Assembly (NCBI GenBank): GCA_037445915.1
Contig: JBBIJQ010000047.1
Span: forward strand, 1 to 15,715
Source: Planctomycetales bacterium
GTDB taxonomy: Bacteria > 4484-113
Length of the DNA: 15,715 bases
Direction: 5' to 3'
Shown in pieces: positions 12,336-15,715 of this stretch. Within the stretch, counting starts at the first letter, position 1, and every line of letters starts with the position of its first letter. The position numbers and the translations under genes were made by a program. A model generated the notes under the pieces. That model did not search any database. It worked only from the letters and a program-made list of their open reading frames with translations, and was not told where the DNA came from.

Positions 12336-14381
12336 CTAGTCGTTAGGGAATGTCAAGCCTTCAATAATCTGTGCGCGGTTTGTGCTGGTATCAAAGCTGA
12401 CCGGCAGCAGATAGAACCGGTAGTTCGGGTCTGCGTAGAGGGTTAGGTTGAGGTCGCGCCCGTCGCCGTTTCCAATGAGGGTGTAGTGCGCGCAATACGG
12501 CGCAACAGGGATGAGAGAGCGGGTAACCGGGTAAGTATCGCCTTCGCCCGGCAGGCGCAGTATGGGAACGCCAGGCAGGCGCTGGCTTTCCTCCATGCCA
12601 ACAGTGCTGCGAACGTCAAAGGTAAGGTAGTGCAGCCACGGGTTGTTCCGAATACTTAGCGGCGATTCGTCGGAGACGTAAATGCCGTCTATGAGGTTGG
12701 CTAGCATAAACTTGGTGTGCAGGACATCAAATCTGTCGCCGGTAGCGGCTTCAAGCATAGCAATTGGGTTAGACCCGCCATCGGTGTAAAGCTTGCGGAT
12801 TGTCCCAGGCCCGTAGTGCTCGGCGATATAGAGGAAGAATAGGAAGCGCGCGCCGTGGGAGGCGTCTTCATCCACGCCGGTCATGCGCTCTGCGTCACAG
12901 GGGACAGGGATGCTGTTAATATTGTTAAGGTAGTTGCGAACCTGGTCCACCAGGAGCTGCGCAGTGCGGCCGCTCTGAAGTGTGTAGCCGGCCTGGTAGA
13001 CCGCAAGCTGAGACAAGCCTTCGTTGAGCCAGATGCTGTCAGGAAGCTGGTGGTCGGCATAAAGCTTGTGCTGGAACTCATGCGCAAGTACGGCGTAAGG
13101 CTGGCTCCAGTCGTCGGAGTCAGCGGGGAAGATGCGGGTGTCCAGGAACAAGGTTGACCAGGCGTAAGACTCCTGCTGCTGCTGGCCTTCTTCTTCAAGG
13201 GATGGACGGTTAATACCACGCGTCCAGTTCTGGTAAAGGCCGGCTGCGCCTTGAAGGTTCATTATCGCGACTATTACGCGGTTATCGCGACCGATGGAAA
13301 GGTCAGGCTCTCCAGGCAGCGTACGGATGAGGTTGCCGTTGCTATCAAAGTCGTTGCCGGTCAGGGTTATGTTGCGGTCAATGTTCTTCCATATCGGACC
13401 GTCATCGGTGCCCGGCCCGGAGTTGTTGTAGCCAAGTATACTGCCGAATGCAGCCTGGACCTTCGGGAAGATGTTAATGTCAAACTCCTGAGCGAAGGCA
13501 GCAAGTCGGCGCTCGGTGAAACGAACCCCATCGGGAAAGCCTTGGTTGTTTTCACACGTAAGGAACACATAGCTATGTGCGCCAATGGCGACCAGGCGGG
13601 CATCCTGTCCATCGTAATTGTCAGGCCAGCGAAGTTCATCGATATCCTGCTGATCGTCATCGCCGGGCTGGATTGGAGGCAGCGGGATTGTGCGCGGGAT
13701 TTCGGTGAAAGTGCGCACTTCGCCCTTGCTCAAAAGCGATGCGGATTTCACGACCGCTTCCACATCGTAGCCAGTCGTAGCTTTCAGGTGGTCGCGCTCG
13801 CGTTCATAAAGCGCGCTTACAGGCAACTTATCCTTGGTCATCGGCAAGCCCTTGTAGTTTGCAGGGTCCATATTAAGGTCTGCCGGCGCAAGGGCAGGAG
13901 TGCTGTTCACCGAGGAAACGCCGCGCGAGACCAGGCTAAAGACCAGCGAGAACGAAAATGGCGGGAAATACTGGAGCTGAGTTTGCAAGGGGTGCCAGTC
14001 CAGATATGCCTTGTTAACGTTCATGGTCACCAGCGCGACTTTTTGGTTAGGCTGGAAGCTGCTCACAGAAAGGAAGCCGTTTCCGCCGCTGTCTACGGGC
14101 AGCGAGAAAATGGAATCCCCAGGAACCCATGGCGGGAAGACATTAGGCGTACCCGGGTTGCCTGAAGGCGGGGAAGGCGGCACGTATCCGTTGTAGCCGG
14201 GAAGTGAGCCCGGCGGGTTCAACGGAGGCGTATTACTACCAGGTATGTAAGTATTGCCACCTGTGCTCGTGTTCGGCGTATCAGTGGGCGTAGGCGTTGT
14301 GCCGCCGCCACCGCCGCCGCATGCCGAAAAGGCCGCCAGTGCAAAAAGCAACACAATCAACGGCAGAAAGACTTTCTTCAT
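12336..14381 (-). CDS. Lipoprotein zinc metallopeptidase (681 aa), gluzincin, clan MA (M30-like)
   Basis: Start ATG 14381 with AAGGAG 7 nt upstream. Lipobox FSAC-GGGGGG, then a Pro/Thr/Gly linker. LAHEFQH (HExxH at 13082-13068), WLNEGLSQLA and FLFFLYIAEHYG. Confidence 0.78.
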   Translation of the reverse strand: MKKVFLPLIVLLFALAAFSACGGGGGGTTPTPTDTPNTSTGGNTYIPGSNTPPLNPPGSLPGYNGYVPPSPPSGNPGTPNVFPPWVPGDSIFSLPVDSGGNGFLSVSSFQPNQKVALVTMNVNKAYLDWHPLQTQLQYFPPFSFSLVFSLVSRGVSSVNSTPALAPADLNMDPANYKGLPMTKDKLPVSALYERERDHLKATTGYDVEAVVKSASLLSKGEVRTFTEIPRTIPLPPIQPGDDDQQDIDELRWPDNYDGQDARLVAIGAHSYVFLTCENNQGFPDGVRFTERRLAAFAQEFDINIFPKVQAAFGSILGYNNSGPGTDDGPIWKNIDRNITLTGNDFDSNGNLIRTLPGEPDLSIGRDNRVIVAIMNLQGAAGLYQNWTRGINRPSLEEEGQQQQESYAWSTLFLDTRIFPADSDDWSQPYAVLAHEFQHKLYADHQLPDSIWLNEGLSQLAVYQAGYTLQSGRTAQLLVDQVRNYLNNINSIPVPCDAERMTGVDEDASHGARFLFFLYIAEHYGPGTIRKLYTDGGSNPIAMLEAATGDRFDVLHTKFMLANLIDGIYVSDESPLSIRNNPWLHYLTFDVRSTVGMEESQRLPGVPILRLPGEGDTYPVTRSLIPVAPYCAHYTLIGNGDGRDLNLTLYADPNYRFYLLPVSFDTSTNRAQIIEGLTFPND

Positions 14382-14423
14382 AGCCGCACTCCTTGTAGAC
14401 ATGTGCGTATTACGCATCAGCCT

Positions 14424-14429
14424 ATTATA
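14424..14429 (-). promoter_or_regulatory. Putative -10 element for the peptidase gene
   Basis: Minus-strand TATGGGTATAATAGG in the short intergenic gap, upstream of the AAGGAG SD. No clear -35. Confidence 0.5.
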
Positions 14430-14442
14430 CCCATATTAACGA

Positions 14443-14958
14443 CTAAGATTCTGGCTCAGTCTGGTTCGCCGAGCTTTCAGCCTGGTCGTCCTCAAGCATC
14501 CTCTTGATTAGCCTGCGCCCGTTGTTCACTGATTCAAGCGACTGAGTGAACGAGTCGGCAAGCTTAGCAAGATTTTCATCAGTATAAATCAGGGATTCGC
14601 GCCTGATATCATTGGCTTTCTCCCTTGCGTTTTCCACCAGCCGGTCAGCTTCAAACTGAGCTTCGCGGACAATGGACTCTTCGCTTACCATGTCGCGCAG
14701 CCGGTCTTCGGCGGTCTGGAGAATGCGGCGGTGTTCGCGTTTAGCATTCTCAATGATGTTGTTGCGCTCCCCAACAATTTCCTGCGCTTCCTTAAGGATA
14801 GCGGGTATCGCTTCCCTTAGTTCCATGCAGATGCGGAAGAACTCCTGGTCGGGGATGAGGATTTTATGCGGCAGTAGGAACGAGCTTTTCTGGGCGAACC
14901 CTTCAAGTTCGTCTAATAGCCGCTCAATTGTCTCGAGTCGTTCCCTTTCGTCAACCAT
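14443..14958 (-). CDS. DivIVA-like / ATP synthase subunit b-like coiled-coil protein commonly encoded after coaD
   Basis: LLDELE......KILI...E......ELREAIP..LKEAQEIV.ER..II..AK.E..RI...AE and EESIVREA..EA. The pattern and the position right after coaD match this family. Confidence 0.7.
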   Translation of the reverse strand: MVDERERLETIERLLDELEGFAQKSSFLLPHKILIPDQEFFRICMELREAIPAILKEAQEIVGERNNIIENAKREHRRILQTAEDRLRDMVSEESIVREAQFEADRLVENAREKANDIRRESLIYTDENLAKLADSFTQSLESVNNGRRLIKRMLEDDQAESSANQTEPES

Positions 14959-14980
14959 AAGCGGTTTGCTTCTCCGGGGA

Positions 14981-15460
14981 TTACTTCAAGCGATGAATTA
15001 TAGCATCTTCTACGGCGGAAGGCACGAAAGGCGAAATATCAGCCCCCAGCCGCGCGATTTCCTTAACCAGCGACGAGCTTAAGTAAAGGTGTTCCAGGCT
15101 TGCGACGAAGAAAACGGTCTGTATTCCGGAATCCAGCCGCGAGTTCATCGCCGCCATCTGAAATTCGTAATCAAAGTCGCTAGTTTGCCGCAAGCCACGG
15201 ATGAGAATGTTCGCGTTGATGGACTTTGCATAGTCAACGAGCAAGCCGTGAAAGGAAGTAACGGTAACCCCTTCCATTCCCGCCGTGACGCGCTGCATCA
15301 GCTCAAGGCGTTCCTCAAGCGTGAATGTGCAGTCCTTGGCGGCAGGCTCTGCGACCGCAACGAGCACTTGCGGGAAAACGCATAACGCGCGGCGCAGGAT
15401 GTCTAAATGGCCGTTAGTGACCGGATCAAAAGTGCCAGCGTAGATTGCAGGTTGTGTAAT
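14981..15460 (-). CDS. coaD: Phosphopantetheine adenylyltransferase (159 aa), probable ATT start
   Basis: The frame extends 5' of the track ORF to give (I)TQPAIYAGTFDPVTNGHLDILRRA. Also F..EER, GLLVDYA, RGLR..SDFDYEFQMA.MN and SSSLVKEIA. An in-frame TAG lies at 15481-15479. Confidence 0.95.
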   Translation of the reverse strand: MTQPAIYAGTFDPVTNGHLDILRRALCVFPQVLVAVAEPAAKDCTFTLEERLELMQRVTAGMEGVTVTSFHGLLVDYAKSINANILIRGLRQTSDFDYEFQMAAMNSRLDSGIQTVFFVASLEHLYLSSSLVKEIARLGADISPFVPSAVEDAIIHRLK

Positions 15461-15480
15461 AGCCCCTCCTAAAGGCTCCT

Positions 15481-15509
15481 AGTTTATAGTTAAGAGGTTA
15501 GGCTGTCAA
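15481..15509 (-). promoter_or_regulatory. sigma70-type promoter for coaD
   Basis: TTGACA (15509-15504), 17-nt spacer, TAAACT (15486-15481). SD AGGAGG at 15470-15465. Confidence 0.7.
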
Positions 15510-15558
15510 ATCCGAACATCCAAGAAAGCCCGCCGGGTAGTGTGGCGGGTTGGCAAGT

Positions 15559-15586
15559 TTGCAGGTATACTGTCTGTGGGTAGAAT
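15559..15586 (+). promoter_or_regulatory. Possible promoter for the prepilin-like gene
   Basis: TTGCAG (15559-15564), 16-nt spacer, TAGAAT (15581-15586). An alternative -10, TATACT, lies at 15566-15571. Confidence 0.4.
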
Positions 15587-15596
15587 ACCCGTGAAT

Positions 15597-15715
15597 ATGA
15601 AAAGCGCGATATCTTTTGTGCAGGATTCATCGCCGCGTATGAGGCGGGATAACGCAGGCTATTCGCTCGTAGAGCTCATGGTCGTGCTCGTTATCATAGC
15701 CATCATTATTGGCGT
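15597..15715 (+). CDS. Type IV prepilin / pseudopilin-like protein, 5' part only
   Basis: Not in the track. MKSAISFVQDSSPRMRRDNAG|YSLVELMVVLVIIAIIIG is a class III signal with Gly-1, Glu+5 and a hydrophobic helix. The start could instead be GTG 15591 or ATG 15639. Confidence 0.85.
   Translation, partial: MKSAISFVQDSSPRMRRDNAGYSLVELMVVLVIIAIIIG

Follow-up and report, generated by a model that had tools for sequence, protein, structure and literature searches.

At which codon does translation of coaD begin when its reading frame offers no canonical start before the catalytic motif of the enzyme? The gene encodes pantetheine-phosphate adenylyltransferase (PPAT) and lies on the minus strand of the window, the whole stretch of 15,715 nucleotides analysed here, which corresponds to the complete contig C47 of a draft genome (G000; 1.79 Mb, 120 contigs, 90% complete). 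The minus-strand frame opens after a TAG at 15481-15479 and reads GAG CCT TTA GGA GGG GCT ATT ACA CAA CCT GCA ATC TAC, followed by GCT GGC ACT TTT GAT CCG GTC ACT AAC GGC CAT. Reading of the minus strand confirmed an earlier observation, made from the letters alone (the sequence-only reading), that ATG, GTG and TTG are missing between the in-frame stop and the catalytic N-terminal motif AIYAGTFDPVTNGH (15407..15448, minus strand). The first canonical in-frame start is a GTG (15365..15367, minus strand; 15367 being its first base), 31 codons past the ATT and 3' of AIYAGTFDPVTNGH. As that reading had also stated, a start at this GTG deletes the motif: it is the codon used by gene callers, and it gives a product of 128 aa that lacks TNGH. 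Direct reading found no ATG, GTG or TTG in any frame from the -10 box described below to position 15429, and a frameshifted start is therefore ruled out. Only two near-cognate codons occur in the coaD frame between the stop and the motif, an ATT at 15460-15458 and an ATC at 15445-15443. We propose the ATT (AUU; 15458..15460, minus strand) as the initiation codon, which gives a coding sequence at 14981..15460 of 159 codons plus the stop TAA (14983-14981).

Putative initiation signals surround this codon, as the sequence-only reading had described them. An AGGAGG Shine-Dalgarno (SD) sequence, read directly at 15465..15470 on the minus strand, lies 4 nt 5' of the ATT, downstream of a sigma-70-type promoter, TTGACA-N17-TAAACT (15481..15509, minus strand), which was found by a promoter scan with 10/12 matches. 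The scan returned 3 sites in the window, against 0.7 expected from shuffles. The end of the promoter is separated from the ATT by 20 nt, and the last T of the -10 box is also the T of the in-frame stop TAG. Across 43 unambiguous starts in this genome the spacing between GGAGG and the start codon is most often 5 nt (range 3-11 nt) and is 4 nt or less at only three of them; the spacing of coaD is thus at the short edge for this genome, and the concern raised earlier that 4 nt is short was well founded. The 16S rRNA gene was not found in the assembly, and hence the anti-SD is not readable from this genome. Folding predicted no structure in the coaD 5' region beyond that of shuffled controls (z=0.70), and a small hairpin touching the SD was not significant against the same kind of controls. 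No Rfam family reached its gathering score anywhere in the window.

Other features flank the gene. A second promoter-like site, TTTGCA-17-TAGAAT, was seen at 15558-15586 of the window, and a prepilin-type protein, divergent from coaD, is encoded at 15639-15713 on the plus strand (PF07963, the N-terminal methylation motif, at 36.2 bits), in a gene cut off by the end of the contig. Two genes lie 3' of coaD on the minus strand, one at 14443-14958 (171 aa) and the other at 12336-14417 (693 aa, with a lipoprotein-like N-terminus), and neither had a Pfam match. With its start 22 nt past the stop of coaD, the 171-aa gene probably shares a transcript with it.

The identity of the protein is clear when it is read from the ATT. 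It scored 189.8 bits with TIGR01510 (cut-off 103.3), and PF01467, at 81.5 bits versus 21, covers residues 12-140 of the stop-to-stop frame. The best PPAT match in the PDB was found at E=2e-46, with 34 PDB sequences at E<=1e-20. Family, length and the motifs TNGH and SSSLVKE are common to this protein and canonical CoaD/PPAT (TIGR01510; PDB 1b6t, 3l92, 1vlh), and AIYAGTFDPVTNGH aligned identically to the solved PPAT chains; the (T/H)xGH that follows the GTFDP strand is what we take to be the N-terminal nucleotidyltransferase motif. The protein is 58-68% identical to its nearest family relatives; among named proteins the nearest, with 71% identity, carries the label Candidatus Riflebacteria. In the alignment with 1b6t, a chain of 159 aa, residues 4-158 pair with residues 10-164 of the stop-to-stop frame, such that the ATT, residue 7 of the frame, corresponds to residue 1 of 1b6t, in agreement with the prior claim that it aligns with the initiator Met.

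We compared 110 coaD loci, 30 of them from genomes and 80 from metagenome contigs. An ATG, GTG or TTG precedes the motif in 107, the motif was not found in two, and the locus described here is the only one without any canonical start, which sets it apart from canonical CoaD/PPAT loci and indicates that a start-less coaD is not a common chance event. Relative to the Tyr of the motif, the nearest canonical start is at -5 in 48 of the 107 homologues and at -6 in 32. The ATT, at -6, therefore occupies the second most frequent start position.

We consider it likely that coaD starts at a conserved AUU (ATT 15460) which depends on the Shine-Dalgarno site. This is the start put forward by the sequence-only reading, and it is supported by the alignment with residue 1 of 1b6t, by the frequency of starts at -6, by the same bases in three samples and by the relatives of this gene (the last two are described below). 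The mRNA would begin a few bases past the TAAACT -10 box, a transcription start site placed from the promoter, and would carry the AGGAGG within a leader of approximately 13-15 nt. The AGGAGG would set the 30S subunit over the AUU 4 nt downstream, where fMet-tRNA could pair with the AUU despite the mismatch at the third position, and the full 159-aa CoaD would be made at a low rate, with (M)TQPAIYAGTFDPVTNGHLDILR as its predicted N-terminal peptide. A low output is to be expected from E. coli reporters, in which AUU, AUC, AUA and CUG gave 1-2% of the value for AUG, according to a preprint (10.1101/063800). The further suggestion that the start is sensitive to IF3 and limits CoaD is a conjecture. 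The infC gene is present (141.7 bits), and its own 5' region offers ATG, TTG and ATA options that leave its start ambiguous; as an internal guide to AUU use it gave no clear answer.

Close relatives are represented here by protein calls (18 near-full calls at 79-100% identity); in a scan of metagenome contig DNA, none among the matches listed exceeded 55% identity to the window coaD. Ten of the 18 calls are 128, 132 or 141 aa long, start at a downstream GTG or TTG and lack the catalytic motif (P0122, P0126, P0123, P0127, P0128, P0014, P0132, P0015, P0134 and P0133). P0122 is the window's own 128-aa call, identical to it and present in public protein sets. Six calls begin M(L)HLDL...GGVITEPAIYAG (P0001, P0121, P0124, P0125, P0129 and P0130) and two begin MEGLIPVPAIYAG (P0002 and P0131), and none of the 18 starts at -5 or -6. 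When the six-member group is placed on the window DNA, its first Met falls in the -35/-10 spacer and its 'LD' over the -10 box, which indicates that these six calls are over-extended, if the conserved promoter is used.

All eight calls that show the N-terminus have an Ile at the position of the ATT, a result at the protein level, where the codon may be ATT, ATC or ATA. The residues flanking this Ile vary, with A, V or L before it and T or P, then Q, E or V, after it, and the Val next to this Ile in the P0001 group might conceivably be a GTG codon. Across the 31 N-terminal residues, the window protein differs at two from P0001 (96% identity overall) and at four from P0002 (81% overall). The start-less state thus appears to be common to a genus-level clade of diverged sequences, whose protein stays under purifying selection over its full length, N-terminus included.

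More distant relatives were available as DNA. A coaD match was obtained in 38 of 41 related genomes, and 5' ends were read for the best 30 of these loci. G001, a genome of the same genus (62% complete), and G003 (77% complete) gave no match with this query, a result that says nothing on absence. A GTG start at -5 from the motif Tyr was present at all six same-family loci. The other 23 loci have an ATG at the expected place in 21 cases, a GTG in one (L029) and both a GTG and an ATG in one (L019). The promoter is conserved, as TTGAC[AG]-N17-TA[GA]ACT was found 5' of coaD at seven of seven family loci, with an equal distance from promoter to motif at four loci of genera g1 and g5. Promoter, leader and start of the window align without gaps to three genus g5 loci; in this alignment the window ATT is opposite ATC, ATC and GAA, and the window ACA is opposite the GTG of the g5 loci. 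At four of the six family loci the position aligned with the ATT is CCG, ACA or GAA, and the Ile codon is thus not conserved family-wide.

On the question put by the sequence-only reading, whether ATT or other near-cognate codons are conserved in related coaD 5' regions, the Ile is kept in the close clade, at the protein level, and the family loci use GTG. The presence of GTG at six of six family loci indicates that the ancestral state was a weak canonical GTG behind this promoter, which was lost in this genome. Weak initiation of coaD would in that case be ancestral in the family, with sister genera using a GTG one codon downstream under the same promoter, and the genus-level clade of this genome would have lost the GTG and come to rely on the adjacent Ile codon.

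We looked for other genes of this kind in the genome. Open reading frames with at least 15 codons before the first canonical start (441 in number) were ranked by upstream coding score, and the top 100 were compared with Pfam. In two genes other than coaD, a domain extends 5' of the first canonical start, and neither a gap nor a stop accounts for this. One is a metallo-beta-lactamase (MBL)-fold gene (G000:C7:20878-21729, plus strand; relatives L233-L239), in which no canonical start precedes the ASGSGGN strand and an ATC at 20950 lies exactly opposite the ATG of order-level relatives. This ATC is found in six genomes from three genera (G000, G001, G005, G008, G002 and G006); the start region is ATT-GTG in G003 and ATG in G004. 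A TGnTATACT box lies 6-7 nt 5' of the ATC in all six ATC genomes, a distance that suggests an apparently leaderless MBL mRNA beginning with AUC. With its apparent ATC start, the MBL-fold gene is a precedent for a non-canonical start within the lineage. The other gene is fmt, for methionyl-tRNA formyltransferase (G000:C46:12563-13576, plus strand), in which no ATG, GTG or TTG precedes the LRIIYW strand. A CTG at 12602 is opposite the TTG of three relatives, an AAG at 12581 is opposite the upstream ATG of four relatives, and the gene 5' of fmt has its stop 4 nt before the CTG.

Several high-scoring candidates of the screen were rejected as alternative starts, some because they proved to be N gaps (rho, aspartokinase, plsX and a CarboxypepD_reg protein) and others because they proved to be in-frame stops. 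A release-factor gene with PCRF and RF-1 domains (G000:C76:3308-4420, plus strand), which has no start in its main frame, fits the programmed +1 frameshift of prfB and was rejected as well. The first canonical start of coaBC (G000:C7:54098-55348, minus strand) is a TTG two residues before the GVSGGIAAYK strand; this start is ambiguous, as a CTG two codons further 5', which has an AAGGA 4 nt ahead of it, is an alternative. Among 341 G000 starts, a roughly chosen 'unambiguous' set, the share of non-ATG starts is high (ATG 206, GTG 74, TTG 61), a figure that may be biased by how the set was selected.

The initiator tRNA of this lineage (G000:C46:14951-15024, plus strand) is itself unusual, with U1:A72 and with A29:U41 at the first of the three G:C pairs conserved in the anticodon stem. 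Both features extend to the family: among the tRNA loci compared (L246-L275), A29:U41, and U1 or C1 opposite A72, were seen in all eight family genomes read. G29:C41 was found in ten of ten genomes of the sister family and in 11 of 12 that are more distant, and the sister-family genomes have ATG for coaD and the MBL gene where read. In PMC5389676, initiator tRNAs with A29:U41 are described for all alpha-proteobacteria and a few mycoplasmas; since the variant is not unique to this family on that account, we did not adopt it as the explanation of the coaD ATT. A link between the initiator tRNA variant and start-codon use is only a hypothesis, the genomes that share both being kin and thus a single evolutionary event. 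We regard it as rather unlikely that the ATT of coaD is a symptom of start-codon selection relaxed across the family, with a machinery that would tolerate AUH or CUG, and perhaps do so where the codon stands first in the mRNA.

The bases of the proposed start could be compared with public data. Four runs from one subsurface metagenome study carry 70-91% of the sampled words, with small shares in runs X5-X20, and Logan contigs of X1-X4 were compared with the window over 14400-15715 (word depth 5-7 for X1, X2 and X3). Those from X1 to X3, which represent three samples of the one study, are identical to the window at 15458-15460 and show no indel across 14400-15715; the X4 contig does not reach the ATT site. 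The run contigs differ from the window at 14635, 15425 and 15591, and X1 additionally at 15434. Two of these differences fall in the N-terminal coding part, GAT>GAC at 15425 and GGC>GGA at 15434 (X1), and both are synonymous, which suggests that the stretch 5' of the first canonical start behaves like coding sequence.

The defects seen elsewhere in the assembly are of several kinds. The grpE gene (G000:C8:7656-8350, minus strand) is split over two frames and seems to lack part of its middle, which would reflect an assembly frameshift or an assembly deletion. Stops in frame, flanked by coding sequence, were seen in lpxA (TAA), an SBBP-repeat protein (TAA) and a membrane protein (TAG), and the in-frame stop sites G000:C24:3422 (plus strand), C25:16255 and 16873 (minus strand) and C45:2832 (plus strand; a TAG) are each a real lesion or a consensus error. 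An in-frame TGA at G000:C67:5417 (plus strand) lies inside a Pyr_redox_2/4Fe-4S protein whose frame is coding on both sides, and may be a selenocysteine codon. Global recoding of a stop codon as the source of such odd frames was rejected, because most of 64 same-frame stop junctions are adjacent genes; the terminal stops of the genome comprise 590 TAG, 585 TAA and 429 TGA.

Could coaD simply have lost its start codon? In that event the gene would be inactive or decaying, and CoA or 4'-phosphopantetheine would be obtained from elsewhere or made by an unrecognised enzyme. The replacement of the ancestral GTG by ACA in the gapless alignment with genus g5 is what such a loss would look like, and the genome is small (1.79 Mb) and has interrupted genes (the TAA of lpxA, the TAG at C45:2832 and the frameshifted grpE). 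Against this, the coaD frame is intact over 159 codons with all motifs kept, the strong SD has been retained, and in the N-terminal part the strains differ by synonymous changes. Across lineages with 81-96% identity the N-terminus is no less conserved than the remainder of the protein, and the state without a canonical start is common to many diverged sequences, in which a dead gene would not stay intact; the apparent purifying selection across the clade is the strongest argument against decay of coaD. The rest of the pathway also speaks for a need of the enzyme, as coaBC (312.9 bits) and coaE (140.3 bits) are present. A second intact copy elsewhere in the genome, which the sequence-only reading had named as a sign that this copy is decaying, did not emerge: the 90%-complete genome yielded a single coaD, and two further PF01467 matches, on other contigs, gave no match to the coaD query at E<=0.01. 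We therefore judge decay to be improbable.

A start at a different non-canonical codon, either the ATC at 15445-15443 (giving M-YAGTFDP) or a codon outside the near-cognate set, has less in its favour still. The ATC is the sole other in-frame near-cognate codon before the motif, but it is 19 nt from the SD, beyond the range of 3-11 nt seen in this genome, and a start there would remove residues aligned with the first strand of solved PPATs. In addition, only one of the 107 homologues has its nearest canonical start at this position (-1). We give this codon a slim chance compared with the AUU at 15460.

Finally, a sequencing or assembly error that conceals a true ATG, or an indel that hides the real start, is very unlikely and scarcely credible at this locus, even though the draft was assembled from a metagenome, is fragmented, contains N gaps and has one or more frameshifted genes, and the depth of the public runs is low (5-7x), since contigs from three other samples share the bases without an indel yet differ from the window at other sites, which speaks against a one-off error such as the G>T change that the sequence-only reading had held to be the main alternative, and since the gene calls for P0126, a variant strain, and for several relatives at greater distance are truncated as well. 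It is on account of the assembly defects elsewhere that we keep a low probability for decay and a marginal one for error.

Initiation of coaD at the AUU would have consequences for annotation as well as for the biology of this lineage. Public gene calls for the clade are wrong, with 10 of 18 shortened to forms without the catalytic motif, and pathway reconstructions that use such calls could wrongly score CoA synthesis as broken. A replacement of GTG by AUU within the family, under a promoter that stayed conserved and with a strong SD, points to a long tolerance of, or selection for, very low translation of CoaD. The ATT of coaD and the ATC of the MBL gene together make the family a candidate for studying variation in start-codon stringency among bacteria.

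To our knowledge, the bacterial genes accepted as starting at AUU, AUC, AUA or CUG are a handful, mostly from model organisms. The coaD described here would be one more case on the short list of ATT-type starts, in this instance for an essential CoA enzyme of an uncultivated subsurface lineage; literature searches on phosphopantetheine adenylyltransferase, coaD and start codon found no report of a non-canonical coaD start. In E. coli, infC and pcnB are given as the only two confirmed non-canonical starts in bioRxiv 10.1101/063800, which agrees with the statement of the sequence-only reading that AUU initiation is known for these two genes. Both are encoded on the chromosome and start at AUU without a canonical alternative, as is proposed here for coaD. 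Unlike the case of infC, no autoregulatory logic of the infC type is evident for coaD. In Enterococcus faecalis, an ATT start 5' of the annotated ATG of ebpA attenuates expression (PMC4447247); the product of ebpA is a pilus protein, the host is a cultured Firmicute and the start was tested experimentally, whereas coaD encodes an essential metabolic enzyme and its start is proposed from sequence. Further parallels are offered by Deinococcus, where the starts of dnaA (ATC), rpsL (CTG) and infC (ATA) are conserved within the clade (PMC2830850). Those starts have N-terminal proteomic proof, while that of coaD is proposed from comparative sequence in an uncultivated lineage. The Deinococcus genes and coaD are alike in being essential housekeeping genes with near-cognate starts, a probable one in the case of coaD, that automatic annotation has misplaced.
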